NCBI GenBank assembly: GCA_035765775.1
Contig: DASTWV010000059.1
Coordinates: forward strand, 353,555 to 417,554
Reading direction: 5' to 3'
DNA length: 64,000 nt
Source of the DNA: Actinomycetota bacterium
GTDB taxonomy: Bacteria; Actinomycetota; CADDZG01; JAHWKV01; JAOPZY01
Shown piece by piece: positions 5,467 to 60,253 of this stretch. Below the pieces are notes generated by a model. The model had not been told where the DNA came from. It saw only the letters and a list, made by a program, of their open reading frames with translations, and made no database searches. Each line of letters opens with the position of its first letter. The first letter of the stretch is position 1. The position numbers and the translations under genes are program-made.

Positions 5467-6433
5467 CAATCGATCCCCTCCGTTCGTCGCATTCTGGTGC
5501 ATCCCCGCTCGCCGGCGGTACTCCATGGCGCATGGGCGACGGCGACCGTCACGGCAGACCAGCGGTCAGCGGAGGCCCTGTAGCAGGCGCATCCCCCATC
5601 CAGGGTTCCTTCTCGCGCAAGCACCGGCTGCGCATATCCGGACATAGTAGACTACCTAGCCGCAAGCACGACGGATCCAGCTGCGGTAGTCCCACCTCAG
5701 GGCGACGCCGCCCGGCGGCGGACACGAGGGCGGGGGTTCCCCCCCATGGCGCAGGAGCGGATCTCCCTCCCGGAGGGAGCCGGGCACGTACCTGCGATCC
5801 GCCCTGAGTACTGGTGGCGCACCAGATGGGCAAAGGTGTCATCGAACGCCACCGGCGTTTCGGGATCGGTGGCTGCACAGGAATAGAACGGGGCGATCCA
5901 CAGCAGCACACCCTGGGCGGTCATGTTGCTGGATATAGACCTCTTCAACCCGACGATTGGGTCGATGGAACATTCATGTGCCTGGACGTACCTGTGAGGA
6001 TGACCTGGCATGATGAGTTCAGCATATTATCAGGTCATCAACCAGTTTGAGCGCAGCGCCGAGGACGTCCGCCAGCACCTCCCTGACCGGCCGGCGTCGG
6101 ATCGGAGGCCATGGTCCCCCGCCAGGACGGCAACGCCGACCGGGACCGCACTGAACGCCGAGGGAGCGACAGCACGTAGCGAAGCCAGAACGCCGCCAGC
6201 ACGGCGTCCACGGACGCCACGTCGGACACCGCGCAGACTGCGCCCCAGGCTGCCTAGAATGCGGGCCGGAGCTGGTGCCGGGCCGGATGCCGGGCCCCAC
6301 CACCAGACAGGGGGACGCGAGCCCGGTCTGTAGGCCCGGGCTCGGCATCCACAGCGCCAGGTCCCAGAACGTCGAGCGCGTCCGCCTCGGCGTGGCCGCC
6401 CTCGCCGCATCATGGCCCCCGCCTGCCGCCCGG

Positions 6434-8659: not shown

Positions 8660-9834
8660 GCCGGGGCAGCGCGGGGAATTCGGGTGGGAACCCAGCAGGC
8701 GACCGTGGTTCCCGCCCCGGGTGAGGAAGTGATTTCCAGGCGCCCCCCACACACCTCGGCCCGATCCCGCATGGAAGTGAACCCGTAGTGGCCCGGCGAT
8801 TCCGGCGCGGCTTCCGCCTCGAAGCCGGTGCCGTCATCGGCGATGACCAGCCCGAGGCCCTGTCCCTGCTCGCGCAGGCCGATGGTCACGTGGCGCGCCC
8901 GGGCGTGCTTAGCGACGTTGACCAGGGCCTCCTGGGCCACCCGGTAGAGGACGACCAGGATCTCAGGCGGCGGGGCGGTGCCCACCTCGATGGCCACCGT
9001 CGCGGCAAAGTCGGCCTCGCGGCCCAGGATGGCGCCCAGCTCCTCCAGGCTGCCGGCCAGGCCGTCGAGATCCGGAGGGGCGGGGCGCAGCACGAACAGC
9101 ATCCGGCGGAGCCGCCGGATGGCAGTCTGCACGGCGGCCTGAAGCTCGTCCAACTCCTGGAGCTGGTCCTGCCCGTTAAGGGTCATCCGCAGCACACCCA
9201 GCCGCAGCGCCACCGCCGCCATCACCTGGACCGAGTCGTCATGGATGTCGGCGGCGACACGCCGCGACTCCTCCTCCTGGGCCGAGACCAGCCGGCGGAC
9301 CAGCTCGGCCCGCTGGGCCTCCACTGCCCGCAGCTCACGTGCCAAATCCTGGCGGGCGCTGTCCATGGCCTCGGCGTCCGCTCCCCGGTCCAGGGCTTTG
9401 GCGTTCAGGAGGGCCACGGGCTCCTGGTGGTAGTCGTCCGGGTCCCCTCCTTGGGTCGGCAGAGGCCCGCGGCGCAGGGCGGCCTCCACGGACTGCAGGA
9501 TTTCCATGGGGCCGGTGGCCTTGGTGAGAATGCCCGAATAGCTGAGATTTCCGGCTAGCCGAGCCACCTCCTCCGTGGAGTCGGTCGCGGAGTAGAACAG
9601 GAATGGGGTGGCGGCGGTCTCGGCCCGCGCCCGCAGGGCGCGCAGGAGGCCGTAGCCGTCGAGTGTCGGCATGAGGATGTCGCTGATCACGAGGTCAGGG
9701 GCCTCGGCGGCCACCCGTTCGAGCGCTTCGGCGCCGTCGGTGGCCCAGACCACCAAGTGCCCAGCCGACGGCAGGATGCTGCCCAGCAGGGCCCGGACTT
9801 GCCGGGTATCGTCCACCACCAGGATGGTCCCCAC
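8656..9834 (-). CDS. Hybrid histidine kinase with no sensor domain: N-terminal REC + HisKA_3 + HATPase_c
   Basis: Likely GTG start at 9834 (VGTILVVDDTRQ...ISDILMPTLDGYGL...FLFYSA, REC domain). HisKA_3 H-box: EESRRVAADIHDDSVQ. HATPase: LYRVAQEALVNVAKHA...ADDGTGF...GFTSMRDRAE...GAGTTV. The ORF-track N-terminal extension (to 10395) is GC-frame noise. Confidence 0.8.
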   Translation of the reverse strand: MGTILVVDDTRQVRALLGSILPSAGHLVVWATDGAEALERVAAEAPDLVISDILMPTLDGYGLLRALRARAETAATPFLFYSATDSTEEVARLAGNLSYSGILTKATGPMEILQSVEAALRRGPLPTQGGDPDDYHQEPVALLNAKALDRGADAEAMDSARQDLARELRAVEAQRAELVRRLVSAQEEESRRVAADIHDDSVQVMAAVALRLGVLRMTLNGQDQLQELDELQAAVQTAIRRLRRMLFVLRPAPPDLDGLAGSLEELGAILGREADFAATVAIEVGTAPPPEILVVLYRVAQEALVNVAKHARARHVTIGLREQGQGLGLVIADDGTGFEAEAAPESPGHYGFTSMRDRAEVCGGRLEITSSPGAGTTVACWVPTRIPRAAPA

Positions 9835-9839
9835 GCCCG

Positions 9840-10454
9840 CTACTGGCCGGCGAGTTCGGTGTGTGCCGGGGCGGAGGCGAAGATGCCGGGCACATGCCCG
9901 TCCTGGTCCTTGAAGACGTCGACATGTAGGGAAACCAAGCGCTCCTGGCCCTGGCGGGTGCCCAGGATCGACTCGTCGTTGGTCATCCCCCTGCTCCAGC
10001 GTGAGCCGGACCCCGCGCCGGGGGCGCCTGGGGTCGGTGAATTGGGAGGGCGAAACGGCGACCCGGTCACCCCGTCCCGGGTGTAGCCGGACACGCGGCG
10101 CATCGTCTTGTTCACATCGCTGATGGCCAGCGGGGAGTCCACCGTGATCAGCCCGTGTAGGGAGGCCTCGATCAGCCCTCGGTTGCAGGACTCCGACTCG
10201 CGCCGCTGCTGCTCGCTCAGCGAGCGCGTGCAGTACTGCGTGGCCTTCAACGCCTCGGTGAGGCGCACCTCCTCGAAGATGTCCCGCGAGATGAGCAGGG
10301 ACCCCATGGGGTTCGCCGAAGGGTCGCGGTGGGGGGCCTTGACCTCCGCCTCGGCTGGGTCGTATCCATACAGCCGGCGGGCGCCCTCGTTCCACCGGAG
10401 GTTCTGGGCCTCAAGATCGCTGGCGCTCATGGCGTAGGGGGCCTTGATCGCCAA
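9840..10454 (-). CDS. Stand-alone PAS-domain sensor protein (two PAS-like segments, no output domain)
   Basis: LRWNEGARRLYGYDPAEA...; SLHGLITVDSPLAISDVNKTMRRVSGYTRDGVTG...FKDQDGHVPGIFA, typical of PAS. The stop (TAG) lies 6 nt upstream of the GTG of the REC-kinase gene. Confidence 0.6.
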   Translation of the reverse strand: MAIKAPYAMSASDLEAQNLRWNEGARRLYGYDPAEAEVKAPHRDPSANPMGSLLISRDIFEEVRLTEALKATQYCTRSLSEQQRRESESCNRGLIEASLHGLITVDSPLAISDVNKTMRRVSGYTRDGVTGSPFRPPNSPTPGAPGAGSGSRWSRGMTNDESILGTRQGQERLVSLHVDVFKDQDGHVPGIFASAPAHTELAGQ

Positions 10455-10602
10455 CAGGCAATGCCGCCCAGCGGCGTCGGGAACGCCCGCAGAGGTCCGG
10501 TGGGCGAGGGATCCAGACGAATAGTTAGGTGAGCCACGGGCGCTCCGGTGCCGTCATTTTGCTTTAGGAAGTGATAGTGACACATGGTCGTCTTGCCGTC
10601 GA

Positions 10603-11472
10603 GTGCGAAACGGGCGACGGGTTGCGCAGCTGCTCCGGGAGCGGGACAATCCTCCAGGGGAGAACCGGCGCCTGGGCAGGCGCACCGTTGGCGCACTGGA
10701 GCAAGGCGTGGCCTGCGTGCTTGTTGTGGAGGATGACCCGGCCAGCGCGGAATTGGTCGGCTACCTCATACGGGGCGCCGGGCACCGGCTGTCGGTGTGC
10801 ACCAGGGGCTCGGATATGGCCGGGGCACTTCGGACTGACCCGCCGGATCTCATCCTGGTGGACCAGCACCTGCCCGACATGGACGGCGTGCAGGCCCTCA
10901 CCTTGCTGCGCTCGAACCCGGCAACCCCGGACGTGCCGGTCGTGGCCCTCACTGCCGCTGCCCAACCGGAGGACCGGGCACGGCTACTGGCGGCGGGATT
11001 CGACGACTACCTCGCCAAGCCTATCGAGCCCACCAGCTTCATGCGTTCCTTGGACCCCTACCTCGCGCGGTCCGGCCGGCGGCCCGAAGGCTTGACGGCG
11101 GACGGCGGCGGGCCCGGCGCACCGGTGCGGGACGCGGAATCCGCGGCCGTGCCGGCCTACCTGATAGGGGTCTGGTGGGAGAGCCTGGAGGCCATCCTGA
11201 GCCGCCTCGGCCGGTTGAAGGCCGCCTCCACGGCAGCGTCCGAGGGGCGCATCTCGCCGCCCCAGCGCAGCGAAGCGGAAGCGGAAGCGCACAAACTGGC
11301 CGGGGTGCTGGGGACCTTCGGTCTCGGGCACGGGAGCCACCTGGCACGGGATCTCGAAGGGCTCCTGGGCGGGGTCAGCCCCTTGGAGGGAGAGGCGGCC
11401 AGCCACATGCGCACGCTGGTGGAGGAGCTGGAGGCCGAAATCCGCCGCGGGCCCCGAGCCAGAGCGGAATGA
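10603..11472 (+). CDS. Response-regulator receiver fused to a histidine phosphotransfer (HPt) domain
   Basis: REC: VLVVEDDPASAELVGYLI...LILVDQHLPDMDGVQ...VVALTA...DDYLAKP. HPt-like C-terminus: EAEAEAHKLAGVLGTFGLGHGSHLARDLEG. An alternative GTG start near 10699 is possible. Confidence 0.7.
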   Translation: MRNGRRVAQLLRERDNPPGENRRLGRRTVGALEQGVACVLVVEDDPASAELVGYLIRGAGHRLSVCTRGSDMAGALRTDPPDLILVDQHLPDMDGVQALTLLRSNPATPDVPVVALTAAAQPEDRARLLAAGFDDYLAKPIEPTSFMRSLDPYLARSGRRPEGLTADGGGPGAPVRDAESAAVPAYLIGVWWESLEAILSRLGRLKAASTAASEGRISPPQRSEAEAEAHKLAGVLGTFGLGHGSHLARDLEGLLGGVSPLEGEAASHMRTLVEELEAEIRRGPRARAE

Positions 11473-13035: not shown

Positions 13036-14148
13036 TCAGGCCAGGACGGCGGCTACGGCCCGGGCGATCTCGAGATCCTCACGGGCGGCGACCACGAGAG
13101 TGCGGACGGCGATGCCGGGCGGCGCGACATCTCGGTCCCCGGTCCCACTCCGGTTGGCGGCAGGATCGACGGCTACGCCCAGAAACCCGAGGCCGGCCGC
13201 TGTCTGCTCCCGCACAACGGCGGAATTCTCCCCGACGCCTCCGGTGAAGACGAGGGCGTCCAGGCCCCCGAGACTGGCTACCATCGCCGCGATCGAGCCT
13301 CGGAGGCGGTGCAGGTAGACCTCCAGCGCCGCACGCTCACGGCCGGAGCCAAGACGCGCCCGCTCGACGATCCGGGCCATGTCGGCGGTGCCGGCCAACG
13401 CCTGGAGGCCGGAACGGCGCTCCAGGGCGTCGGTGAGGTCCGCCGCGGACAGCCCGCCGTTGGTTTGCAACCACAGGAGCAGCCCCGGGTCGACCGTGCC
13501 CGCGCGGGTCGCCATCACCAAGCCCTCGAGGGGGGTGAAGCCCATCGTGGTGTCGACGGAGCGTCCCCCTGCCACCGCGGCCAGCGACGCGCCTGCCCCC
13601 AGATGGCAGGTGACGATCCGCAGTCCGGCCAGTGGCCGGGCCATGATCTCGGCGCTCCTGCGGGCGGCGTAGGCGTGCGACAGACCGTGGAACCCGTACC
13701 GCCTGATCCCCCAGCGCTCCCGCCAGGCATCCGGGAGGGCATAGGTGGCGGCCGCCGGGGAGAGGGTGGCGTGGAAGGCGGTGTCGAAGCACGCCACCGA
13801 AGGGCACTCTGGCAACCCGGCGCGCAGGGCGTCGATCGCCGCCAGGGCCGGTGGCTGGTGCAGCGGGGCGAGGGCAACCAGGTTCCCAAGTTGCGCCCGG
13901 ACCCTGTCATCAACGCGCACGGGCTTCGTGAATTCCGGGCCACCGTGCACGACGCGGTGCCCGATCGCCTCGGGCGACGCCGATGCAGCCCACCGGACGA
14001 GCTCGGCACTCTCGGCAGCCGCGGGAGCGAGATCGGTCCGGCCCGCCACGCGAGCGCCGTCGAGGATCCGCAGCTTGAGGCTGCTAGATCCGGCATTCAC
14101 CACCAGGACCCGCACCGCCGCGCGTTGCCTTACCCAGGCCAGACCCAC
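13036..14148 (-). CDS. ackA: Acetate kinase
   Basis: [12 protein letters not shown]; HRVVHGG; CFDTAFH; RYGFHGLSH; [11 protein letters not shown]. The start overlaps the 3' end of the phosphoketolase gene. Confidence 0.9.
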
Positions 14149-16547
14149 TCGCGGATGTCGGGCGGATCTTCGCCCTCCCGGTGAGCGTAGGCGCGGGCGA
14201 GTGCCCGGGCATCGACCATGCGCTGGCGGACATCGCCGGCCCGGGAGTTGAGTCCCGGCACCCGGTCGATCACATCCATGACGAGGTGGAAGCGGTCCAT
14301 GTCGTTCAGCATCACCATGTCAAACGGCGTCGTGGTGGTGCCCTCCTCCTTGTAGCCCCGCACATGCAGGCCGAGGTGGTTTTCCCGCCGGTAAGCCAGG
14401 CGATGGATGAGCCAGGGGTAACCGTGGTAGGCGAAGATCACCGGGCGGTCGGGGGTGAACACCGACGTGAACTCCACGTCGGTCATGCCATGCGAGTGCT
14501 CGGTTGGCGGTTCCAGGCGCATGAGGTCCACGACGTTCACGACCCGCACTTTGAGTTCGGGCAGTTCCCGGCGAAGGAGGTCGACTGCGGCCAGGGTCTC
14601 CAGGGTGGGGATGTCGCCGCAGCAGGCCATCACCACATCGGGATCCTGGACACCGCGGCTGGCCCACTCCCAGATCCCAATGCCGCGGGCGCAGTGCAGG
14701 ACGGCGTCGGGCATCGACAGCCAGTTGAGCGAGGGCTGCTTGCCGGCGACGACCACGTTCACGTAGTCCCGGCTCCGCAGGCAGTGGTCAGCCACCGACA
14801 GGAGGCAGTTGGTGTCGGGCGGGAGATAGACGCGGATGACGCCCGCCTTCTTGTTCACGACGTGATCGATGAACCCCGGGTCCTGGTGGGAGAACCCGTT
14901 GTGGTCCTGGCGCCACACATGCGAACTGAGCAGGTAGGTGAGGGAAGCGATCGGGCGCCGCCAGCCCAACCCGGCGGACACCTTCAGCCACTTGGCATGT
15001 TGGTTGAACATCGACTCGACGATGTGTATGAAGGCCTCATAGGAATTCAGCAGGCCGTGGCGCCCGGTCAGGAGGTAGCCCTCCAACCACCCCTCGCACA
15101 GGTGCTCGGACAGGACCTCCATCACGCGCCCGTCCGGGGCGAGATGGTCGTCTCCTGGCTCGATCCGGCCATCGAAGGCCCGGTCGGTGGCCTCGAACAG
15201 CGCGGTCAGGCGGTTGGACGCCGTCTCGTCGGGCCCGAAGACCCGGAAGCGGTCCCGGTTGGCGGACACCACGTCGCGCAACCACTGCCCCAGCACCCGG
15301 GTCGGTTCGCTGGTTGAGGCACCGGGGGCGGTGACCTTCACCCCGTAGGACCGGAAATCAGGCAGGCTGAGATCATGGAGGAGCAGCCCGCCGTTGGCGT
15401 GGGGATTGGCCCCCATCCGGCTGCTTCCCGACGGGGCGAGGGCCGCCAGCTCGGGGCGGAGGGCGCCGGCGGCGTCAAACAGCTCGTCCGGGCGGTAACT
15501 GTGCATCCAGGCCTCCAGGGCCGCCAGCTGGACGGGGTTGCTCCGAACGTCGGCCAGGGGGACCTGGTGCGCCCGGGAGGTGCCTTCCATCGGCTCACCG
15601 TCCACGGTTTTGGGGCCGGTCCAGCCCTTTGGCGTGCGGAGGATGATCAAGGGCCAGCGCGGCCGGTGCCGGTCACCGTCCCGGGCCGCCTGCTGGATGG
15701 CCCCGATGTCATCCAGGGCGGCGTCGAGGACCGCAGCCAGGTCGCGGTGTACCTGAAATGGGTCGCTGCCCCCCACCACAAGCGGCCGGTACCCGTATCC
15801 CGTGAAAAGGGCGTCCAGCTCCGAGTCCGGGATGCGGGCCAGCACGGCAGGATTGGCGATCTTGTAGCCGTTGAGGTGCAGGATGGGCAGCACCGCGCCG
15901 TCGTGGGCTGCGTCGAGGAACTTGTTGCTGTGCCAGCTCGCCGCTAGGGGACCGGTCTCGGCCTCACCGTCGCCCACGACGCAACAGGCGATGAGGTCGG
16001 GGTTGTCGAGGACTGCCCCGTAGGCATGCGCCAGGCTGTAACCCAGCTCGCCCCCCTCATGGATCGATCCCGGTGTCTCGGCGGCGACGTGGCTGGGGAC
16101 CCCTCCGGGGAAGGAGAACTGGCGGAAGAGCCGTGCGAGCCCAGCCAGGTCGCGGCTCACACCCGGGTAGATCTCCGAGTAGGTCCCCTCCAGGTAGACA
16201 TTGGCGACCATCGCCGGGCCGCCGTGGCCCGGCCCGGCGATGTAGATCATGTTGAGCCCCCGGGCGCGGATCACCCGGTTGAGGTGGGCGTAGATCAGAT
16301 TCAGGCCCGGTGTTGTCCCCCAGTGCCCGAGCAGCCGGGGCTTGATATGCGCGGGCTGGAGCGGTTCCCGGAGCAACGGATTGGCGAGCAGGTAGATCTG
16401 GCCGACAGCGAGGTAGTTGGCCGCCCGCCAGTACGCATCCAGCAGCCGCAGATCCGTACCGGCCAAGGCGTCGTCGACGGATGGAGACCCCGAGCGACGC
16501 TGGCCGGGGTCGTCGCGACCGTGAGTCATTCCTGCATCCTGACGCAT
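14130..16547 (-). CDS. xfp: Xylulose-5-phosphate/fructose-6-phosphate phosphoketolase
   Basis: [24 protein letters not shown]...[10 protein letters not shown]...GPGHGGPA...[15 protein letters not shown]...[11 protein letters not shown]...[10 protein letters not shown]...[11 protein letters not shown]...[16 protein letters not shown], about 805 aa. Start at M(RQDAG)MTHGRDD, ~16547 or 16529. The 1020-aa ORF-track extension is spurious. Confidence 0.9.
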
Positions 16548-16676
16548 ATCGGCTCTGGGCGCGAATGGGTCCGGGGGGCCCGGGGAAAGGGGCCGTTCGG
16601 CCCCTGACTCGCACATGGGGGAGGAGTAGCTTCCGGTGGCGCAAGAACTATCGCCCGGCAATGAAAGGGGAGTGCC

Positions 16677-17255
16677 ATGCAACGCCAGAAGATTGACCGC
16701 ATCGTCTCGTGGATCGGCGTCCTGATGACCGCTGCCCTGGTGGGTTCCAGCGCGCTGCTGCTGTGGGGAGCCGCCTTCGTGGACCACCAGATCCATAATC
16801 AGCTGGCGACGCAAGAGATCTTCTTCCCGGCTGCAGGCAGCGCCGCCCTGGCACCCAAGACGATCGGGCCCTACCTGGACCGCTACGCCGGCCAGCAATT
16901 GGTGAACGGGGCCCAGGCTGAGGCCTACGCAGACCACTTTATCGCCGTGCACCTGAGCGAGGTGGCCAAAGGCCAGACCTATGCCCAGGTGAGCGCGGCC
17001 GCGCAGGCGGACCCCACCAACACCACCTTGACCAATGAGGTCAACACCCTCTTCAAGGGGGAGACGCTCCGCGGCCTGCTGCTGAGCGCCTATGCGTGGT
17101 GGCGGGTGGGGCAGCTGGCTCTGATCGCAGGGCTGGTCGCCGGTGTCCTGGCCGTGGTGATGGCTGCCCTCTCCATCCTGGGGTTCTGGCACCGCCGGCA
17201 GGTCCTTGTCGAAGCCGTGGATGTCGCCGCCCGGCCTGTGGCCGCGGCGGTGTAG
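16677..17255 (+). CDS. Hypothetical membrane protein (N- and C-terminal transmembrane segments)
   Basis: Hydrophobic segments [26 protein letters not shown] and [25 protein letters not shown] flank a soluble loop. No homology recognised. Confidence 0.45.
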
Positions 17256-20836: not shown

Positions 20837-21840
20837 CGGGCCGCCGCCCGGACGTCGGGGGCTGGCCCCCCGGCACGGTCCGGCCGCTCGGCCTCGTTGT
20901 AGCGGCGGTAGGCCTCGACGATCTGCTGGACGATCTTGTGCCGGACGACGTCGTGGGCATCGAGGTAGGCGAAGGCCACCCCGTCGATCCCCCCCAGGAT
21001 CTCCTGGACGCTCACCAGGCCCGACTGGCCCTCGGGCCGGTCGATCTGGGTGACGTCGCCGGTCACCACGGCCCGGGAGCCGAATCCCAGGCGGGTCAGG
21101 AACATCTTCATCTGCTCGGGCGAGGTGTTCTGGGCCTCGTCCAAGATGATGAACGAGTCGTTCAGCGTCCGGCCCCGCATGAAGGCGAGCGGGGCGACCT
21201 CGATCTCCCCCCGCTCGATCGCCCGGGCGTAGGCCTCGGGCTCGAGCATCTCGTAGAGGGCGTCGTAGAGCGGCTTGAGGTAGGGATCGACCTTGGCGGC
21301 GATGTCGCCCGGCAGGAAGCCCAGCTTCTCCCCGGCCTCGACCGCCGGCCGGGTCAGGATGATGCGCCGGACCTGCTTCTGGGCGAGGGCCTGGATGGCC
21401 GAGGCGACCGCCAGGTAGGTCTTGCCGGTGCCGGCCGGGCCGATGGCGAAGACGATGGTGTTGGTGCGCATGGCATCCACGTACTGCTTCTGGCCCACGG
21501 TCTTCGGGCGCACCGACTTGGTGCGGGACACCAGGAGGGCGTCGGAGAACACCTCCGAGGGCTTCACGGTGCCGGTCTTCACCATGTCGATCGAGCGAAC
21601 GACGGCGTCGGCGGTGAGCGGGTAGCCCCGGCCGATCAGCTCCATGAGCTCCTCGAAGAGGTAGGACACGAGCCCCACCTCGTGCGGCTCCCCGCTCAGG
21701 GTGATCTCGTTGCCGCGCACCAACACCGAGGCGTCGAAGCTCTGCTCCACGAGCTTGAGCAGCTCGTCCCGCGTCCCGAAGAGATTCACCAAGGGGAGAT
21801 CCCCGGGGACGAGAATCTTCACCTGCGTTGTGGCCTGCAA
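20833..21840 (-). CDS. phoH: PhoH-like ATPase
   Basis: [14 protein letters not shown] (Walker A); [19 protein letters not shown]; IILDEAQNT; [13 protein letters not shown] start. Confidence 0.9.
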
Positions 21841-21980
21841 GTCTGCCTACAGATGTCTTTTCTTTTTGATTTCCCAAGTTTGGGCTGCCCCGCGAGGATA
21901 CCAGCGTGCCGGGCGCGCGCCCCGGTACAGCCGGTCCACAGGCGAACCCGGGAAGTTCGGGCGGTATCCTCGGGGGCGTT

Positions 21981-23192
21981 GTGCGAGCGCGATCCGCCCG
22001 TGCCCACCTGGGGGCGGCCCTGACCGTGGTGGTGGCCCTGGTGGCGGCGGCCTGCGGAAGCGGCGCGCCCGCCAGCGTCTCGCCGACCTCCCCCACCCCC
22101 ACTGAGGCATCGACCCGGGCCGTCCGGGGCGCGACCCCCACGCCGTCGCCCTCGCCACTCCCACCGGTCAACCCCGTGGCCCCGGCCCTCCAAGTCCAGG
22201 ATCCCGCCGGCCTCTCGGCGGCCCAGGCCCAGGCGGTGCGGGGCATCTCCGGGGTGGTGGGCGTCGCCCGGGTGGTGCTGGCCTACGTCACCGCCCACAC
22301 CGCCGGGGGCCTCCGCCAGGTGTCGATCGCGGCGGTGGACCCGCTGGAGTTCCGCCCGCTCGCCCCGGCGGTCACGGCCCAGGCCGACTTCGTCTGGCAG
22401 GGGCTGCTGGCCGGCGACATCTACCTGGCGCACGAGGAGCAGCCGGTGCTCAACGTCGCCCTGGGCGCCGACCTCGCCACCACCGGGCCGGAGGCCACGG
22501 TGCCCCTGCGGGTGGGTGGGCTGGCGGCCAACGGGACCCCGAACATCGCCAGCGGGCTGATCTCGATGCAGGAGGCCGCCGACCTCGGGCTCCCGGGGCC
22601 GACCGAGATGCTCGTGTCGGTGGCCCAAGGGGTGGACATCGACCCGGTCACCAAGGCCATCGCCAAGGCGATCCCGCAGGCTGTGACGACGCCCCTGGTG
22701 GCGCTGGTGGACCACGCCCTCGTCTCGGGGAGCGCCGCCGAGAAGCTGTTGGGCTCCTTCAACTACAAGGCCAATCCCAACGGCTCCATCACCGAGGACT
22801 CCCGCTGGGTCAACGCCAACATCGTCACCCGGACGGTGCCGGTCCTGGGGTCGGTCACCTGCAACAAGCTCATGTTCCCGCAGCTGATCGGGGTGATGAC
22901 CGACCTCCAGCAAGAGGGCCTGGCGAACCTGATCAACGTCGCCGAGTACCACCAGCACGAGGGCAACTGCTGGCAGCCCCGCTTCGTCGACAGCGACCCG
23001 TCCCGGGGGATCTCGTACCACGCCTGGGGCATCGCCATCGACATCAACCGCACCGAGAACCCGGAGGGCGGCTCGAACCACCAGGACCCCCGCCTCATCG
23101 AGGCGTTCGAGCGGTGGGGCTACCGCTGGGGCGGGGTGTTCTACCCCCCCGACCCGATGCACTTCGAGCTGGCGGGCATCATGCAGCAGTGA
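21981..23192 (+). CDS. Lipoprotein with a C-terminal peptidase M15 (VanY / D-Ala-D-Ala carboxypeptidase-like) domain
   Basis: Signal/lipobox RARSARAHLGAALTVVVALVAAACGSG. C-terminus: SYHAWGIAIDIN...WGYRWGG...DPMHFEL (the H-x6-D...H zinc motif of the M15 family). The start is uncertain; the ORF track allows 21906, and I chose GTG ~21981 immediately before the signal peptide. Confidence 0.7.
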   Translation: MRARSARAHLGAALTVVVALVAAACGSGAPASVSPTSPTPTEASTRAVRGATPTPSPSPLPPVNPVAPALQVQDPAGLSAAQAQAVRGISGVVGVARVVLAYVTAHTAGGLRQVSIAAVDPLEFRPLAPAVTAQADFVWQGLLAGDIYLAHEEQPVLNVALGADLATTGPEATVPLRVGGLAANGTPNIASGLISMQEAADLGLPGPTEMLVSVAQGVDIDPVTKAIAKAIPQAVTTPLVALVDHALVSGSAAEKLLGSFNYKANPNGSITEDSRWVNANIVTRTVPVLGSVTCNKLMFPQLIGVMTDLQQEGLANLINVAEYHQHEGNCWQPRFVDSDPSRGISYHAWGIAIDINRTENPEGGSNHQDPRLIEAFERWGYRWGGVFYPPDPMHFELAGIMQQ

Positions 23193-24666
23193 GGGTCTCG
23201 GGAGGGCGGGCCAGCGCCGGGCGCAGGGGCGGCAGCCCGGCGCGGCGCACCTGCGCCACCGCCAGGCCGATCAGGGCCACCAGGGCCACGAGCTGGAACA
23301 CCGGGAAGGCGGTGGACAGCGGCACGCGCAGCACGGTCTTCAGCACCCCGGTCGAATTGGTCCAGGCGTCGGAGAGCAGCAACAGGACGGAGTAGGCGAG
23401 CCCCAGGGCCGCCAGGCGGGACCGCCACTGGAGGGCGAGCAGGGGGAGTAGCGCCGCCAGGTACCAGGGCTGGATGTACGAGGTGGCCAGCACGAAGCCC
23501 AGGGCGGTGGCCGCCATCCCGGAGGAGGGGCGGGAGTCGGCGCTGCCTGCCAGGCCGGCGACGGCCGCCACGACCGCCACCAGGGCGCTCCCGGCGTAGC
23601 GGGCATTGCCGGTCAGCCACAGCTTGGGGGCGGGCGGAATCAAAAGGCCGCCCAGCTGGCCCTGCGCCACCGGCGAGGGCGGGACCTTGTGGCCGAACCA
23701 GCCCCACAGCGACCAGTGGTCAACGAGCCGGGAGGCGTCCTGCACCGGGCCGAGGGCCGGAAGGCCGCCGACGAGCAGGTAGCCGACCACCACGATCCCG
23801 GCCACGATGCCCGCCACCCCGAGCGCCCGCCGGACGCCTTCCCGGCGCCACAACCACGCCACGAGGGCCGCCGCCGGCAGCACGGCCACCAGCTTCACCA
23901 GCGCGCCCAGACCGAGCAGCACCCCGGCCAGGACGGCGCCCGCGGACCGGGTGGGCCGCCCGCGGGAGAGGGCCAGGACGGCCGCCAGGGCGGCGATCCC
24001 CACCAGGGCGTCGTTGTGGGCGCCGTTCACCACGTTCACGGTCATGACCGGCGACAGCCCGAGGAACGCCAGCGCGCCGGCCTCGGCTCCCCGGCGGTAC
24101 AGGAGCACGACGGCGCCCAGGACCGCGGCGCCGGTGAGGAGCTGGAAGAACAGCCGGGCGGCGAGCGCCGATCCCCCGGCCCCGAGCATGCCTGCCGCCG
24201 ACAGCCCGGTGAAGACCGGGCCGTAGACCGTCTTGGTGTCCTGCCACCACACCGACACCCGCCAGAACCAGGGGTCGCCCGAGTACGCCATGGGCGAGGC
24301 GGCGTACGGGCTGGCGTGGTAGTGGGTCACCATGTGGCCGTACATCGCATACGACCAGACGTCCTGGGAGTCCCGGGGCGGGGCCAGCACGGCGGCGAGC
24401 ACCAGCCCGGCGCTCACCCACAGCACCACCCGGCGATCGAGCACCGGGGCCAGCACCTCCATGACGACCAGGAGGACGAACGCGGCCGACGCCACCAGCA
24501 GGAGGGGCAGGCCCCGGCTCTGGCGGGTCAGCAGTGCGCCCAGGGTGCCGGCCACCAGGACGCCGACGGTGACGTGCGCCCGGGTCCGGTTCCAGCGGGC
24601 GACGAAGGGCCGGGCGCGGGCCCGCTGGGCGATGCCCGCCAGGGACCCAGCCCGGAACAGGCTCAT
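23179..24666 (-). CDS. Polytopic GT-C-type membrane glycosyltransferase (DUF2029/GT87, PimE-like alpha-mannosyltransferase family)
   Basis: More than 10 predicted TM helices. Motifs resembling the DUF2029 family (SQDVWSYAMYGHMV; VMTVNVVNGAHNDALVG). 4-nt overlap with the upstream deacetylase gene. Confidence 0.55.
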   Translation of the reverse strand: MSLFRAGSLAGIAQRARARPFVARWNRTRAHVTVGVLVAGTLGALLTRQSRGLPLLLVASAAFVLLVVMEVLAPVLDRRVVLWVSAGLVLAAVLAPPRDSQDVWSYAMYGHMVTHYHASPYAASPMAYSGDPWFWRVSVWWQDTKTVYGPVFTGLSAAGMLGAGGSALAARLFFQLLTGAAVLGAVVLLYRRGAEAGALAFLGLSPVMTVNVVNGAHNDALVGIAALAAVLALSRGRPTRSAGAVLAGVLLGLGALVKLVAVLPAAALVAWLWRREGVRRALGVAGIVAGIVVVGYLLVGGLPALGPVQDASRLVDHWSLWGWFGHKVPPSPVAQGQLGGLLIPPAPKLWLTGNARYAGSALVAVVAAVAGLAGSADSRPSSGMAATALGFVLATSYIQPWYLAALLPLLALQWRSRLAALGLAYSVLLLLSDAWTNSTGVLKTVLRVPLSTAFPVFQLVALVALIGLAVAQVRRAGLPPLRPALARPPETLTAA

Positions 24667-25442
24667 CGCCGCCCTGTTGCCTCCCCCAGGGCGGCGCCCA
24701 CCGGGCCCGGCTCCAGCCCCTTGGAGCGCAGCTCGGCCACGATCGGCTCCAGGGCGCCCAGCGTGCGGCGCCAGGCGCCTGCCGACGAGTAGGCCTCGGC
24801 GTCGTGGAGCAGCAGCACGTCGCGGTCCCGGACCCCCTCCAGGAGGCGGCTGTGGATGAGGGCGGGCGTGGCGGTGGGCTCCCAGTCCTTGCCCCAGCGC
24901 GCCCAGAGGACCCGGTTCCAGCCCAGCCGGCCCGACGTCACCCAGGAGGCGGCACTGAAGACCCCGTAGGGCGGGCGGAAGTGGCGGACGAGGGCGCCGG
25001 TCTCCCCCTCGATGATGTCCCGGGCGTCCAGCAGATCCTTCACCGTGCCTGGCGGGGTGAGCCGGAGGTGGTTGAGGTGGCGGTAGCCGTGGCAGGCGAT
25101 CTCATGGCCCGCCTCGACGATCGCCCGGGCGGACTGCGGGCTGCGCCGGACCTGCTCGCCGACCAGGAAGAAGGTGGCGGTGACCTCGAGCTCGGCAAGG
25201 GCCGCCAGGAACGCCTCCACCGCCTGGGGCTCGGGGCCGTCGTCGAAGGTCAGGCCCACTTTCCCAGGCTGGTCCAGGTGGCGCACCGTGCGGAACACGG
25301 GCCGCCCGAGGGCGGTGACCGCCAGCGCCGGGGCAGCGTGCACCGTCGCCAGAGCGGCAGTGGTGAACAGGAGGCGGCGGACCGGGCGGCCCCGGGAATG
25401 ACCGTTGCGCCCGCTCGCGTGGTGGCCGTTGCCCCCCGTCAT
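24663..25442 (-). CDS. Polysaccharide deacetylase (CE4/NodB homology domain), secreted
   Basis: Signal peptide, then VGLTFDDGP...ATFFLVGEQV...HEIACHGYRH...LLLHD (the canonical NodB motifs). Confidence 0.85.
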   Translation of the reverse strand: MTGGNGHHASGRNGHSRGRPVRRLLFTTAALATVHAAPALAVTALGRPVFRTVRHLDQPGKVGLTFDDGPEPQAVEAFLAALAELEVTATFFLVGEQVRRSPQSARAIVEAGHEIACHGYRHLNHLRLTPPGTVKDLLDARDIIEGETGALVRHFRPPYGVFSAASWVTSGRLGWNRVLWARWGKDWEPTATPALIHSRLLEGVRDRDVLLLHDAEAYSSAGAWRRTLGALEPIVAELRSKGLEPGPVGAALGEATGRR

Positions 25443-27370
25443 GCCGGGAGGGCGGCGCCGGAGGCGCTGAGGTCCACCACGTGCAGGCCGTGGGACGCCG
25501 CCTCGGCGAGGAAGGCACCCAGCATCGCGCGGCCGCCCGCGGGCGTGGTGCGGGTCAGGTCCAGGACGACGACGTCGCCCGAGCGCAGGCGGTGGCTGGC
25601 CCAGCTGGCCCCACCGGAGTTGTGGATCCAGAGGCTGCCCACGACGCCCCGCAGGTGCGCCGCCCGGGCGGCCAGGTAGGCGGCCGGGGTCAGTGAGCCG
25701 TGTGCGGGCAGGTAGTAGATCGGGGCGTGCCCGGTGGCGCCGCGCACGTCCTCCGAGCCCTCGTCCACCTGGCGGCGCACCGCCGAAGGGGTGGACAGCC
25801 GGGACACCCCGCCCACCCCGCCGTTTTGGATCTCCCCGGCGGTGGCGTAGTCCGCCAGGAAGGCGCTCGCCCCGGCGGCGTCGCCCGCGGGGAGGAAGAA
25901 GGTCGCCTGCGCCCCGTGGTCGGCGAGGAGGGCGGGCAGGCCGTTGACCGATGCCGTGTCGGCCATCCGGATGCAGAGCACGACCGAGCCGGCCGGGACC
26001 GTGCCCGCCCGCTCCACGACGGGCAACCCGAGGTGGCCGCCGGCGAAGGACACCGAGGTCCCGCTGGTGAGCAGGACGAAGAGGGCCACCAGGGCGACCC
26101 CGGTGGCCGAGAGCCAGCGCAGCCGGTGCCGGCCGCCGGCCTTGCCCGCCCGTGACCCGGTCGGGGTGGTTGCATTCCGCCGGGCAGGGCCGGCCTGCTG
26201 GGGACGGCCGGAGGAGGCTGCCGGATCGGTTTCGGGGTGGAGGTGGTCGGGCAGCCCGACGGCCGCCCGGCTCCGGGCACCCGAGTGGAGGTCGACCAGC
26301 GCCGAGCCCGCCGAGGGCAGCTCGGCGAACCCCACGGCCAGGCGCTCGGCTCGGGCCCGCAGGCCGGGGTCGTCCCGGCAGGCGGCCACCGCGGCCGGCA
26401 GGTCGGCGACGTCGCGCACGTACCGGGCCACCCCCACCCGGTCCATCAGCTCGCCGTTGGCGACACCGTGGCCCGGGATGGCGTCGGTGATCAGCAGGGG
26501 GCAGCCCCGGCGCAGGGCCTCGAGCGAGGTGAGCCCGCCGGCGTTCTGCACCGCCAGGTCACAGGCGTCGATCAGGTCGGGCATGTTGGTGACGTACCCG
26601 CAGACGATGGTGCGGGGCGGCGGATCGGCGTCCAGCTTGGCCTTGAGGGACTCGTTCTTGCCGCAGACCACCAGGGTCCACACCCCGTCCACCGTGGCGA
26701 CGGCCCGGGCGGAGCGCTCGATGTTGCCCACGCCCCAGCCGCCGCCGATGACCATGGCCACGAAGGCGTCGTCGGGCACGCCGAGCTCGGCCCGGGCACT
26801 CGCCCGGCGCGACGGCCCCAGGAACCGGCGGGCCACCAGCGGGGCGACCACGGTGGTGGGCGAGGGCTCCATCATCGAGGCGACGGTCTCGACGGTGGAG
26901 ATGTGCATCACGTAGTTGTCGTCGAGGTCCGGGTACATCCACATCGGGTGCGGGGCGAAGTCGGTCACCAGGTTGGCGCACGGCATCGTGATCTTGCCCC
27001 GGCGCTTGAGCGACGCCAGCATCGCCGAGGTCAGTGGGTAGGTGGACAGGACGATGTCGGGCTGGGACGCCTCGATCAGGCGGTGGATCTTGCGGCAGCC
27101 GATGACCGCGCAGAGCCCCTTGTAGAAGTAGGTGACCTTCTTGGACTTGACGATCGACCAGTACAGCCACGAGTAGGACCACTGGGCCTTGTCCAGCTGG
27201 ATCTTGTAGCCGTCGATGACGAACTTCTCCCAGAAGGCGCCCACGACGGCGAGGCCGTTCTCCACCTGGACCTCGGCTGCGGGGTCCAGCTCCCGGATTT
27301 CATCGCTCACCGCCCGGGCGGCCGCGTTGTGGCCCTCCCCGACGCTGGCAGTCAAGATGAGTAGCTTCAT
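25439..27370 (-). CDS. Fusion protein: UgtP/MGDG-synthase-like GT28 diacylglycerol glycosyltransferase + TM segment + CE4-like deacetylase domain
   Basis: N-terminus MKLLILTASVGEGHNAAARAV...IVLSTYPL...NLVTDF...VIGGGWGVG...CGKN...NAGGLTSLEA matches B. subtilis UgtP/MGDG_synth. Mid-protein TM: WLSATGVALVALFVLLTSG. C-terminus ATFFLPAGDAAG... is NodB-like. Confidence 0.75.
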   Translation of the reverse strand: MKLLILTASVGEGHNAAARAVSDEIRELDPAAEVQVENGLAVVGAFWEKFVIDGYKIQLDKAQWSYSWLYWSIVKSKKVTYFYKGLCAVIGCRKIHRLIEASQPDIVLSTYPLTSAMLASLKRRGKITMPCANLVTDFAPHPMWMYPDLDDNYVMHISTVETVASMMEPSPTTVVAPLVARRFLGPSRRASARAELGVPDDAFVAMVIGGGWGVGNIERSARAVATVDGVWTLVVCGKNESLKAKLDADPPPRTIVCGYVTNMPDLIDACDLAVQNAGGLTSLEALRRGCPLLITDAIPGHGVANGELMDRVGVARYVRDVADLPAAVAACRDDPGLRARAERLAVGFAELPSAGSALVDLHSGARSRAAVGLPDHLHPETDPAASSGRPQQAGPARRNATTPTGSRAGKAGGRHRLRWLSATGVALVALFVLLTSGTSVSFAGGHLGLPVVERAGTVPAGSVVLCIRMADTASVNGLPALLADHGAQATFFLPAGDAAGASAFLADYATAGEIQNGGVGGVSRLSTPSAVRRQVDEGSEDVRGATGHAPIYYLPAHGSLTPAAYLAARAAHLRGVVGSLWIHNSGGASWASHRLRSGDVVVLDLTRTTPAGGRAMLGAFLAEAASHGLHVVDLSASGAALPA

Positions 27371-27617
27371 TGGAACAACCTCTCCTGCCCGCGTCCAAGC
27401 AGACCCTGCGGCGGGCTGGCCCCATCTTCCCGGATAGAGCGGGGCCGGGCAACCGTTTGCTCAGGAATGGCTGGCCGGCTCGGTGCCCATCCTCCCGGGG
27501 ATGTCAGGCTCCCGAGCACAGCCCGTTCAATCACGGTGATGGCGAGCGCCGAGGCACATCGCAGATCCGAGCCAGGCTCGATGGCCTGGATCCGATGCCC
27601 GATCCCGGGCGCGAACC

Positions 27618-28088
27618 TCAGACCACCGTCAGGCCGAGGTCCCCCAGCGTGGTCAGCAGGGCGTCGGGAGAGGCGCCCAGGGCGCTGGCGAGGGCCCACA
27701 GGTCGTCGGAACGGATGGTGAGCACCCGGCCGTTGAAGTCGCCCCGCTGCGCCTGCACGACGCCGACGTAGCGCTGCAGGACCACGCACTCCGGGGCCTC
27801 GGTCTCCCGCAGCCGGACGAGGTCGATGCAGACCCTGCCCGCCGCCGGGCTGGCCGGGGAGGCGTCCCCGCCGGCGTCCCGGGGCAGGAGGTGGTCCACC
27901 GGGACGCCGTAGAAGCGGGCCAGGCGCTGGAGCCTCGGCACCGAGATGCTCCGCTCGCCCCGCTCATAGGCACCCAGCACTGAGGACTTGAACTCTTCCC
28001 GGGAACTGTGCTCGACCTCATGCAGGGAGAGACCCTTCTGCAAACGGACGTTGCGAAGGCGCTCACCAACGGACTGGGCGTAGGTCAT
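27618..28088 (-). CDS. XRE-family helix-turn-helix transcriptional regulator
   Basis: GERLRNVRLQKGLSLHEVEHSS...VLGAYERGERSISVPRLQRLARFYGV (HTH_XRE domain), followed by an uncharacterised C-terminal domain. Confidence 0.75.
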   Translation of the reverse strand: MTYAQSVGERLRNVRLQKGLSLHEVEHSSREEFKSSVLGAYERGERSISVPRLQRLARFYGVPVDHLLPRDAGGDASPASPAAGRVCIDLVRLRETEAPECVVLQRYVGVVQAQRGDFNGRVLTIRSDDLWALASALGASPDALLTTLGDLGLTVV

Positions 28089-28172
28089 CGCTCCCCCCGA
28101 AGACGACGATCAATCGCTTGCGACGCTACCACATCGCCGTAGTTCACCCCGTCGACCAAAACCTTCCACTTT

Positions 28173-28934
28173 TTATGGCAAATATCGTTCGAATCTAGCG
28201 AAGTGGTACAGCAGGATGCTAGCCAGGACTATCGGCGCCGTTTCCGCCCGCAGAATCTGGGCACCCAAGGTGGCGGGCACGGCGTCCGCCTCCCGGAGGA
28301 GCCCGACCTCGGCCTCGGTGAGCCCCCCCTCTGGCCCGGCCACCACCCAGACGCCTGCCGGGTCCACCGGCCACCCAGCCAGCACCGCGCTCAGCGCGCT
28401 CGGGGCGCCGGGATCGGCCACCAAGCCGGCCCCCTGGGAGGCGGCCCGCTCCGCCGCCGTGCCCAGGGGCAGGGGGCCCTCGAGCTCCGGCAACCACGCC
28501 CGGTGGGACTGCTGGGCGGCGGCCTGGGCGATGCCCTCCCACCGCCGCCGGGCGGCTCCGGCCTGGCCGGCGTCCCACCGGACGACACTGCGGGTCGCCG
28601 GGAAGAGGGTGACTGCGTCCACCCCCAGCTCGACCAGCTGGCGGATGGCACTGTCCACCTTGGGGGTCTTCGCCAGGCCGAGAAGGACCTCGATCCGGGG
28701 CCGGGGACGCTCGACGGTGCGCCGGTCGACCAGCGCCAGAGTCACGGACCCCCGCCCGGTAGACGCAATGCGGGCCTCGGCGACGGACCCGTGGCCGTCG
28801 GACAGGGTGACCTCGTCGCCCGGGGCCGCCCGGCGGACCGTCAGGAGGTGGCGGGCCTCCGGGCCTTCGAGCTTGACGGTGTCGTCAGCGAGCCGCCCGG
28901 GCTCGACGAAGAAGTAGGGCGGGTGCCCGCTCAC
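28173..28934 (-). CDS. rsmE: 16S rRNA (uracil1498-N3)-methyltransferase
   Basis: PYFFVEPGRL...RHLLTVRRAAPGDEV...VLLGLAKTPKVD...GPEGGLTEAE...LGAQILRAETAPIV. Conserved position downstream of dnaJ. Confidence 0.85.
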   Translation of the reverse strand: MSGHPPYFFVEPGRLADDTVKLEGPEARHLLTVRRAAPGDEVTLSDGHGSVAEARIASTGRGSVTLALVDRRTVERPRPRIEVLLGLAKTPKVDSAIRQLVELGVDAVTLFPATRSVVRWDAGQAGAARRRWEGIAQAAAQQSHRAWLPELEGPLPLGTAAERAASQGAGLVADPGAPSALSAVLAGWPVDPAGVWVVAGPEGGLTEAEVGLLREADAVPATLGAQILRAETAPIVLASILLYHFARFERYLP

Positions 28935-43164: not shown

Positions 43165-43389
43165 CCGCCCTTCCTTCCGCTCGATACCTGCTCGATGCAC
43201 TCAACCCACAACGGGCGCAGCATGGTCGGTGCACGTTTCCGGGCGGTGTCGGAAGGGTTTCGGCGAGGTTGAGATTCGGGGGCGATCGCGTTACAGCACG
43301 GCTGTGGCCCCGGGCTGTCGGGTGCGCGTGGACGCAGCGCGGGACGACGGTTTTTGCGGACCTTCAGGAGTCGTGAGTCTCGGCGCCGC

Positions 43390-52440: not shown

Positions 52441-52604
52441 GGCTTGCGGGCTTCGTCGACCAGCATGTGCGGGATGCCGTCGACCACCGGGTACTCGTAC
52501 CGGCACTCCCCGACGCACGCGATGACGGAGTCGGCCTCCCGGTACTCGATCTGGCCGTGGCAGTTCGGGCAGATCAGAATCTTCAACAGTTCCTGGTCAA
52601 CCAT
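52437..52604 (-). CDS. Trm112-like small protein (DUF343 family), ~55 aa; not in the ORF track because it is under 60 aa
   Basis: Minus-strand translation: MVDQELLKILICPNCHGQIEYREADSVIACVGECRYEYPVVDGIPHMLVDEARKP*. The CPxC...C..C zinc ribbon plus the DGIP.ML.DEAR C-terminus are diagnostic of the Trm112/YcaR family. Confidence 0.7.
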   Translation of the reverse strand: MVDQELLKILICPNCHGQIEYREADSVIACVGECRYEYPVVDGIPHMLVDEARKP

Positions 52605-52649
52605 CGTCAGGGCTCCAATCGGATCCGGTCGGGGTTCGGTGTGCGCCGG

Positions 52650-53180: not shown

Positions 53181-53210
53181 GGGCCGACGCCGCCAGAGCG
53201 CTACGCCGAG

Positions 53211-60232: not shown

Positions 60233-60253
60233 GCGTGGCTCCTTTGATGGGAA

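Follow-up and report, generated by a model that had tools for sequence, protein, structure and literature searches.

A conserved glycosyltransferase-deacetylase module in Actinomycetota carries a pseudo-deacetylase ectodomain and may build a de-N-acetylated envelope glycolipid

We analysed a 64,000-nucleotide stretch of DNA from a metagenome-assembled genome of an uncultured soil Actinomycetota bacterium (GenBank assembly GCA_035765775.1, contig DASTWV010000059.1 of 547 kb, positions 353,555 to 417,554 of the forward strand; hereafter the window, in whose numbering positions are given). Its minus strand holds an operon of three open reading frames (ORFs), which encode a glycosyltransferase of family GT28 (ORF1), a deacetylase of carbohydrate esterase family 4 (CE4; ORF2) and a polytopic glycosyltransferase of the GT-C type (ORF3). 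Our main finding is that ORF1 ends in a domain which has the fold of a CE4 deacetylase and has lost its catalytic and metal-binding residues, while the gene next to it encodes a CE4 protein with all motifs intact, and that this pairing recurs widely in the phylum. We propose, at a probability of roughly 0.45, that the system makes an N-acetylhexosamine (HexNAc) lipid inside the cell, which is de-N-acetylated outside and then glycosylated, and that the dead domain tethers or presents the substrate. For two features of the locus we found no report in the literature searched: the pseudo-deacetylase ectodomain, which is conserved, and the association with a GT-C enzyme of MptB/PimE type.

The three genes lie at 25439-27370 (ORF1, 643 amino acids (aa), protein HEU5004174.1), 24663-25442 (ORF2, 259 aa) and 23179-24666 (ORF3, 495 aa, protein HEU5004172.1). 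A first-pass annotation made from the letters of the window had described them as overlapping minus-strand genes, and this is borne out: each start overlaps the preceding stop by 4 nt, and both junctions read ATGA, which fits co-translated partners. Their third-position GC content (0.93-0.96) is usual for genuine genes here, the GC content of the genome being 70-75%. Ahead of ORF1 there is an intergenic leader of 247 nt on the same strand (27371-27617), in which a Shine-Dalgarno-like GGAGAGG stands 8 nt before the ATG; scans of 21500-28500, leader included, found no sigma-70-like promoters and no terminators. Separate assemblies of ENA, JGI, Logan and NCBI contain at least 14 full-length homologues of ORF1, which have 621-641 aa and 66-85% identity. 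The same architecture thus recurs across many independent assemblies, which rules out the fusion being an assembly artefact, a danger that the first-pass annotation had itself raised.

The N-terminal part of ORF1 (aa 1-370; 26261-27370) is a GT28 domain of the GT-B fold and of the UgtP/monogalactosyldiacylglycerol (MGDG) synthase kind, predicted to be cytoplasmic. It matches MGDG_synth (PF06925) with E 2.5e-19 and 70.4 bits (cut-off 25), followed by a GT-B C-terminal domain (Glycos_transf_1), and finds UgtP (9wde, 1.2e-22) and MGD1 (4wyi, 1.1e-21) among the PDB sequences, so the family first assigned to it holds. With a profile of the GT28 family the values become 1e-47 for UgtP 9wde, 1.4e-40 for Arabidopsis MGD1 and 1.7e-5 for MurG; a MurG-like role on polyprenyl-linked acceptors was rejected, the similarity to MurG being about 35 orders of magnitude below that to the diacylglycerol (DAG) glycosyltransferases. 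Because ORF1 misses the NCBIfam equivalog cut-off for diglucosyl-DAG synthase (122 against 500 bits), its sequence marks it as a relative of UgtP, not as an orthologue.

Within this domain, His14 (GEGH) aligns with GNGH of UgtP and GGGH of MGD1, and Glu284 (TSLEA) with TLTEA and TIAEA of the same two enzymes; the G-x-G-H histidine and the TSLEA glutamate are kept in 87/88 and 88/88 subfamily members, respectively. From the literature on MGD1 and MurG, we take the histidine to be catalytic and the glutamate to bind UDP. The donor-loop region is a different matter. Where the alignment has PGQEKEN in UgtP and AGQEAGN in MGD1, ORF1 has PGHGVANG, and the G-Q-E of these glucose- and galactose-transferring enzymes is replaced by G-H-(G/A/I) in all 88 members. 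Provided that this loop contacts the donor sugar, as it presumably does in related GT-B enzymes, the G-H-x form would fit a distinct subfamily with a donor other than glucose or galactose, although it does not identify that donor.

Behind the GT28 domain, aa 371-445 (26036-26260) form a low-complexity linker rich in Arg, Lys and Pro together with a single transmembrane (TM) helix at about aa 417-445. The helix, which had been anticipated, is placed by the hydropathy peak of ORF1 at about aa 425-443 and by an AlphaFold2 (AF2) fragment model, where it spans residues 4-24, that is, aa 415-435 of ORF1. Its N-terminal flank has three K/R and no D/E. Since the positive-inside rule applies and the GT-B domain needs cytoplasmic nucleotide-sugar, we infer an N-in/C-out topology, which would put aa 446-643 outside the membrane.

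This last part of ORF1 (25442-26035) is the presumed ectodomain. Pfam PF01522 detects it below threshold (E 0.0014, 19 bits against 23.1), whereas a profile of 13 family members reaches CE4 chains of the PDB with E 6e-11, and hhalign aligns it with the partner CE4s over 205 columns (probability 98.7%, E 1.9e-16). The AF2 model of the domain, with a predicted local distance difference test (pLDDT) of 86.3 and a predicted template modelling score (pTM) of 0.81, retrieves with Foldseek more than 30 CE4 structures, ArnD included (E 2e-9 to 1e-5); the top matches belong to BA3943 (6hm9, 7bkf), a CE4 pseudoenzyme of Bacillus anthracis, and active CE4s rank next. The first-pass annotation had predicted a NodB-type deacetylase domain at this place, and as to the fold it was right by profile, AF2 and Foldseek alike. 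As to the activity it was not. In motif 1, the TFDDG of the partner becomes C-I-R-gap, the base Asp being replaced by Arg and the metal Asp deleted (family consensus VLCIRA). In motif 2 (HxxxH), both metal-binding His residues are Gly (GxxxG; 'EIQNGGVGG' against 'HEIACHGYRH'). Motif 3 changes from RPPYG to LPAHG with the loss of Arg, and motif 5 from LLLHD to VVLD- with the loss of His.

The catalytic-residue replacements are common to 25/25 aligned relatives of ORF1, down to 28% identity, and because the same loss is seen in all of them the domain is, as judged by sequence, a conserved pseudo-deacetylase. A bifunctional synthase-deacetylase is thereby ruled out. The idea of glycosyltransferase and deacetylase activities in one polypeptide falls with the absence of the NodB Asp/His motifs from the fused domain, and the enzyme is to be sought in the separate ORF2. 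Among homologues with a full-length identity of 67-71% the pseudo-domain itself keeps 49-56%, and its sequence record is that of a domain under selection rather than of a decaying remnant. A single-sequence search with it through 1.84 billion representatives gave 21 matches only, and at this sensitivity the domain looks rare; profile searches reveal it in further GT28 fusions. The C-terminal domains of Thermoleophilia match the pseudo-CE4 profile (hhalign 98.4%) and are barely CE4-like, with a probability of 20.8% when compared directly with active CE4, so that their homology appears only through the pseudo-CE4 profile; the fusion would therefore be old and the domain would have drifted further in that class.

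The neighbouring ORF2 keeps what the fused domain has lost. It matches Polysacc_deac_1 (PF01522) with E 1e-28 and 100.3 bits (cut-off 23.1), and the motifs TFDDGP, HE..CH...H (H118/H122), RPPYG, DW and LLLHDA are invariant across four orthologues of 44-71% identity. Because all CE4 motifs are intact, ORF2 can be regarded as a bona fide CE4 protein and the operon's likely deacetylase. Its N-terminus has an Arg-rich n-region and then a hydrophobic stretch (aa 24-42), from which an exported or N-terminally anchored protein is predicted, in agreement with the secreted CE4 deacetylase proposed at the outset. The nearest NCBIfam models are of PdaB, NodB and PgdA type, all of them far below their cut-offs.

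For ORF3, the match to GT87 (PF09594) is marginal at 27.9 bits (cut-off 25). PF26314 (MptA_B_family) is precomputed for it and almost all of its homologues, which carry PF09594 as well, and distant homologues of 26-29% identity bear the name MptB. A phmmer search of ORF3 against the PDB sequences gave no match even at E 10. Its AF2 model (pLDDT 92, pTM 0.91) finds PimE first (9dm7/9dm5, E about 3e-5), followed by ALG3, PIG-U, glycosylphosphatidylinositol (GPI) mannosyltransferase I (GPI-MT-I), AglB and AftA, with modest TM-scores of 0.44-0.52; by this comparison the fold is nearest to the mannosyltransferases dependent on polyprenyl-phosphate-mannose. The earlier description as a polytopic DUF2029/PimE-like enzyme was thus sound, and can be made more accurate: ORF3 is a GT-C of the MptA/B-PimE type, predicted to depend on a polyprenyl-phosphate-sugar. 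All 54 aligned homologues, MptB-named proteins among them, have D102 of the first-loop motif S-x-D-V-W-S-Y, and Y148-G-P, H217-x-D219, K258 and W401 are equally invariant. By analogy, D102 would be the catalytic acidic residue of the first extracytoplasmic loop, and the donor is probably polyprenyl-phosphate-mannose. About 27 kb from the operon, at 51373-54554 on the minus strand, there are genes for a phosphomannomutase/phosphoglucomutase and for a bacterial SIS-domain protein of the phosphoglucose/phosphomannose isomerase type. They would feed the supply of GDP-mannose and polyprenyl-phosphate-mannose, and mannose activation is plausible to that extent; a gene for polyprenyl-phosphate-mannose synthase was not seen in the 64-kb window.

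The association of these genes was examined by a species-level scan of 80 loci across Actinomycetota, with one genome per species and six-frame ORFs screened with purpose-built hidden Markov models. An active-type CE4 gene stands beside the GT28 gene in 71/80 loci, whose flanks are unrelated, and the pairing spans an uncultured clade, Thermoleophilia, Streptomyces, Acidimicrobiales and a metagenome-assembled genome (MAG) of Mycobacteriales. Of the nine loci without it, five lie at the end of a contig, two have a fragmented CE4 gene and two are from Pseudonocardia. In 37/80 loci there is, in addition, a GT-C gene of the GT87 type; Pfam confirmed GT87 in five cases, of which two scored at the 25-bit cut-off or slightly under it. 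Relatives with 70% identity have the identical order hrcA-dnaJ-rsmE-bldD-[GT28~pseudoCE4]-[CE4]-[GT-C], followed by the convergent M15 peptidase and phoH-ybeY-corC-era, and the 4-nt overlaps are also retained. Homologues at about 30% identity, in unrelated contexts, retain only GT28~pseudoCE4 followed by the CE4 gene. In Solirubrobacterales the GT-C gene is found divergently upstream of the GT28 and CE4 pair, and the fact that the three genes stay together across classes, in either of two arrangements, argues well for their acting in one pathway. The general idea of the first-pass annotation, in which a lipid glycosyltransferase and a deacetylase give a de-N-acetylated envelope glycolipid and a GT-C enzyme acts externally, is supported by this linkage (71/80 and 37/80) as well as by the precedent of HexS/HexD, described below.

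Further forms of the fusion point in the same chemical direction. The pseudo-domain also ends 905-aa proteins (P0030-P0053) that start with an NDP-sugar 4,6-dehydratase/epimerase domain and have the GT28 domain and TM helix between the two. In one locus (L088, 5227-9721), such a fusion gene sits behind a CE4 gene and a gene for a PseC/LegC/DesI-like aminotransferase; the aminotransferase, the CE4 and the dehydratase fusion together point to amino sugars, and the sequences of this variant suggest glycolipids with 4-amino-4,6-dideoxy sugars. In 1064-aa fusions, a metallophosphoesterase precedes the same GT28 subfamily and the protein ends again in a pseudo-CE4 domain. In Pseudonocardiaceae and Kutzneria, the subfamily is also found joined to a domain of the wax-ester/triacylglycerol synthase (WS/DGAT) kind, which links the GT28 enzyme to acylglycerol metabolism; these two types of fusion were found among proteins P0021/P0022 and P0029/P0056/P0065. 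As for the neighbours of the pair, it adjoins a divergently oriented repressor of the BlaI type and a BlaR1-like M48 peptidase in Streptomyces xylophagus (L025, 4204-5671) and a histidine kinase in another MAG (L018, 3647-5041), which hints at envelope-stress or antibiotic-inducible control, like that by HexRK in Clostridioides difficile.

On these grounds the following pathway is proposed. The GT28 domain of ORF1 would put an N-acetylated hexosamine, probably from UDP-N-acetylglucosamine (UDP-GlcNAc), on diacylglycerol or on an existing glycolipid in the inner leaflet. The lipid would then cross to the outer leaflet, a step for which the locus has no flippase gene, and there the exported ORF2 would strip the N-acetyl group to give a free amine. 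ORF3 would finally add a sugar, most likely mannose from a polyprenyl-phosphate donor, and the product would be a glycolipid or lipoglycan on a hexosamine-lipid anchor. As a non-catalytic part tethered to the synthase by one helix, the pseudo-CE4 ectodomain would most likely keep either ORF2 or the HexNAc headgroup close to where the lipid is made.

The closest characterised system is HexSDF of C. difficile, which we compare by enzyme families and gene adjacency. There, the annotations are MGDG synthase for HexS, polysaccharide deacetylase for HexD and MprF-like flippase for HexF (PMC10128005). HexS and HexD give aminohexosyl-hexosyl-DAG via an N-acetylated intermediate (PMC10128005, PMC11898633), which accumulates without HexD, and HexF is not required for making the product (PMC10128005). 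UgtA supplies the acceptor, a monohexosyl-DAG (PMC11898633). Here, too, a glycosyltransferase gene of the MGDG-synthase family adjoins a CE4 deacetylase gene, and the published model, with cytoplasmic HexNAc transfer to a glycerolipid and then de-N-acetylation, predicted by its authors to be extracellular, has the same logic as ours. The present locus differs in having no MprF-like flippase gene, in the TM helix and dead CE4 ectodomain of its synthase, in the MptB/PimE-like GT-C gene of the operon and in its BldD-like regulator, HexSDF being governed by a two-component system. It may be described as an aminoglycolipid module resembling HexS/HexD, to which two parts are added: the pseudo-CE4 ectodomain and the GT-C gene.

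A second parallel, in operon logic, is GpgSDF of Pseudomonas aeruginosa, in which a glycosyltransferase adds GlcNAc to a lipid of the membrane and this sugar is then turned into glucosamine (GlcN) by a deacetylase, GpgS and GpgD making glucosaminyl-phosphatidylglycerol (GlcN-PG) (PMC11483062). That system has phosphatidylglycerol as acceptor and a predicted flippase, and lacks a GT-C enzyme and a pseudoenzyme domain. For the external step, MptB of Corynebacterium glutamicum is the nearest model, as it extends a DAG-glycolipid primer (Man-GlcA-diacylglycerol) into the lipomannan LM-B (PMC2440535). An MptA/B-family GT-C extending a DAG-based primer outside with mannose derived from polyprenyl-phosphate-mannose is what we propose here as well; the LM-B primer, however, is made by GT4 enzymes, contains glucuronic acid instead of hexosamine and needs no deacetylase, and ORF3 is a distant relative of MptB (26-29%).

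The order of chemistry we propose also resembles that of eukaryotic GPI-core assembly. In the latter (PIG-A, PIG-L, PIG-M), GlcNAc on a lipid is converted to GlcN and then mannosylated by a GT-C enzyme with polyprenyl-phosphate-mannose as donor. The likeness is one of logic and not of pathway homology, for the GPI core is built with GT4 instead of GT28 and LmbE/PIG-L instead of CE4, on phosphatidylinositol, and with cytoplasmic de-N-acetylation.

As to the ectodomain, B. anthracis has BA3943 and BA0150 (7bkf/6hm9, 4m1b) and BA0330/BA0331, extracytoplasmic proteins with the NodB fold and with impaired or absent deacetylase activity, to which structural or unknown envelope roles are assigned (PMC4505593, PMC10967932). 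Those are free-standing proteins or lipoproteins which keep the motifs in part, whereas the present domain retains none of the five motif residues and is joined through a membrane helix to a glycosyltransferase; the literature searched holds no report of a CE4 pseudoenzyme fused to a glycosyltransferase. PgaB/PgaC-type machinery for poly-N-acetylglucosamine (PNAG) was rejected as the closest analogue, since there is neither a GT2 synthase nor a polymer export component, and the comparison with PgaC/PgaB and chitin-oligosaccharide systems drawn in the first-pass annotation is weaker than that with HexSDF. Its suggestion that such a lipid had not been described in actinobacteria fits the literature searched, whose coverage is incomplete and in which we found no description of a GT28-CE4 module in actinobacteria; the same logic is, though, already known in Firmicutes and Pseudomonas.

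Several points weigh against the proposed pathway. Neither donor nor acceptor specificity can be read from the sequence of ORF1. CE4 enzymes act also on peptidoglycan, chitin oligomers, PNAG and O-acetyl xylan. A flippase gene (MprF-like, LPG_synthase_TM) was found in none of the 54 ORFs scanned in the window, nor was an MprF-like one in the annotated related loci. The sole transporter-like matches in the window are a major facilitator superfamily protein (41659-43200) and FtsEX. Many loci with the GT28 and CE4 pair miss an ORF3-type gene, so that ORF3 may stand beside the pathway as an accessory instead of carrying out one of its steps. That the pseudo-domain serves as a scaffold is purely inferred, and Streptomyces homologues of about 420-510 aa do without that domain while the CE4 neighbour is still there.

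Among the alternatives, the one that survives best, though we consider it unlikely, is that the two enzymes have separate substrates. ORF1 would then make an ordinary hexosyl-diacylglycerol in the manner of UgtP, serving as a membrane lipid or as an anchor of lipoteichoic acid or of a lipoglycan extended by ORF3, and ORF2 would act on GlcNAc in a polymer or in peptidoglycan and not on the headgroup. ORF1 does match glucosyl- and galactosyl-DAG synthases best, both in NCBIfam and in the PDB, and ORF2 comes closest in NCBIfam to the PdaB, NodB and PgdA types already named, but the NCBIfam matches of both lie far under the cut-offs and the donor loop is unlike that of the glucose and galactose enzymes in every member. 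An M15 peptidoglycan peptidase is a conserved neighbour, yet its gene is lost from the distant loci. Lipoteichoic acid with GlcN and GlcNAc substituents and a presumed glycosyl-DAG anchor is known from Streptomyces hygroscopicus (PMC3196553). Against this alternative stands the strict adjacency of GT28 and CE4 genes in 71/80 loci amid unrelated flanks, which argues for one shared substrate chain.

It is improbable, in our judgement, that ORF1 is processive and builds a short GlcNAc chain on diacylglycerol, which ORF2 would partly deacetylate outside to leave a PNAG- or chitosan-like, lipid-anchored oligosaccharide bound by the pseudo-CE4 domain. A lipid-primed oligosaccharide was the second product that the first-pass annotation envisaged. 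The UgtP family can be processive (9wde is titled 'processive diacylglycerol beta-glucosyltransferase'), oligo- or polysaccharides are the typical substrates of CE4 enzymes, ORF2 has NodB among its best NCBIfam matches, and CE4-fold pseudoenzymes with non-catalytic roles are known (PMC4505593, PMC10967932). Polymer export machinery is not present, however, the sequence gives no sign of processivity, and HexSD, the characterised GT28 and CE4 system, adds one amino sugar (PMC11898633). Very improbable is, lastly, the mere co-location of three independent envelope enzymes in a conserved housekeeping region, with the fused domain as a decaying, functionless remnant: the neighbours are housekeeping genes in conserved order (hrcA-dnaJ-rsmE ... 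phoH-ybeY-era) and the fused domain is below the Pfam threshold, but relatives with 70% identity still have the 4-nt overlaps, GT28 and CE4 genes are found paired in very different genomic contexts, the pseudo-domain persists across two classes with a confident fold prediction, unlike a decaying remnant, and the linkage statistics already largely refute such a reading.

Upstream of the operon and on the same strand (27618-28088) lies the gene of a 156-aa transcriptional regulator, previously annotated as an XRE regulator. The helix-turn-helix assignment stands (HTH_3, E 3.6e-11), and the additional BldD-like_C domain (E 3.6e-19) makes it, more precisely, BldD-like. NCBIfam TransRegBldD is not reached (154 bits, cut-off 250), and on its sequence the protein is not a certified BldD orthologue. 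The position of the gene is kept in the close relatives L001-L003. Its translation reads RGD-FNGRVLTI-RSDD (RGD-x8-RSDD), which fits what we take to be the cyclic di-GMP (c-di-GMP) motif of Streptomyces BldD, RXD-X8-RXXD. The BldD box TNAC-N5-GTNA has no match in the leader 27371-27617, and its window-wide count is below chance. Elsewhere in the window, a REC-EAL-GAF-PAS protein (6434-8752, minus strand) is likely a c-di-GMP phosphodiesterase, and other REC/Hpt/PAS signalling genes are found at 4780-11472. Control of the envelope operon by c-di-GMP is possible in view of these sequences.

On the other side of the operon, an M15_4 (VanY-like) peptidase is encoded on the plus strand at 21906-23192 (Peptidase_M15_4, E 8.3e-14), probably a lipoprotein with the lipobox-like LVAAAC. 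Its gene converges on ORF3 with a 14-nt overlap of the 3' ends. It has the same position in L001 and L003 and is absent from distant loci in which just the GT28 and CE4 genes remain, and its membership in the system is uncertain.

The rest of the window yielded some further observations. At 1871-2817 (minus strand), two overlapping ORFs match positions 138-253 and 305-431 of DDE_Tnp_1_4 and are probably a frameshifted or decayed insertion-sequence transposase. A phosphoketolase (XFP) gene adjoins an acetate kinase gene at 13036-17192 (minus strand); the mechanical XFP ORF (1020 aa) begins about 245 codons ahead of the profile match, and its true start is probably further downstream. Two tandem YbjQ_1 (putative heavy-metal-binding) genes occupy 59408-61237 (minus strand), with 274 and 327 aa against a profile of 103 positions, and are followed by ORFs at 61272-61661 and 61723-63132 with no Pfam match.

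The locus would have consequences for the annotation and the biology of the phylum. Annotating the ORF1 fusion as a bifunctional enzyme would be wrong. If our proposal is true, a dead CE4 domain fused across the membrane to a synthase, with a live paralogue alongside, would be a clean case of a pseudoenzyme that serves as a scaffold or presents the substrate. A broader view, which we hold to be rather doubtful, is that many Actinomycetota (this clade, Thermoleophilia and, in a reduced form, Streptomyces) make undescribed cationic hexosamine-diacylglycerol lipids; that in lineages bearing the GT-C gene these are anchors of a GPI-like or LM-B-like lipoglycan (HexNAc-lipid to hexosamine (HexN)-lipid to Man-HexN-lipid); and that the live deacetylase cannot do without the dead domain on the synthase as its partner, synthesis inside being coupled in this way to editing outside. 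Hexosamine-diacylglycerol lipids might then explain part of the glucosamine-containing lipids on which the chemotaxonomy of actinomycetes has long relied. Were the proposed pathway confirmed, an amino-sugar glycolipid or lipoglycan would be added to the actinobacterial envelope, and cultured relatives, among them Thermoleophilum album (locus of WP_177169477.1) and several Streptomyces, would offer a genetic handle on it. Lipids with a free amine lower surface charge, and the analogous lipid of C. difficile influences how resistant the cells are to daptomycin and bacitracin; the module could thus matter for cationic-drug resistance in soil actinomycetes, themselves producers of such drugs.

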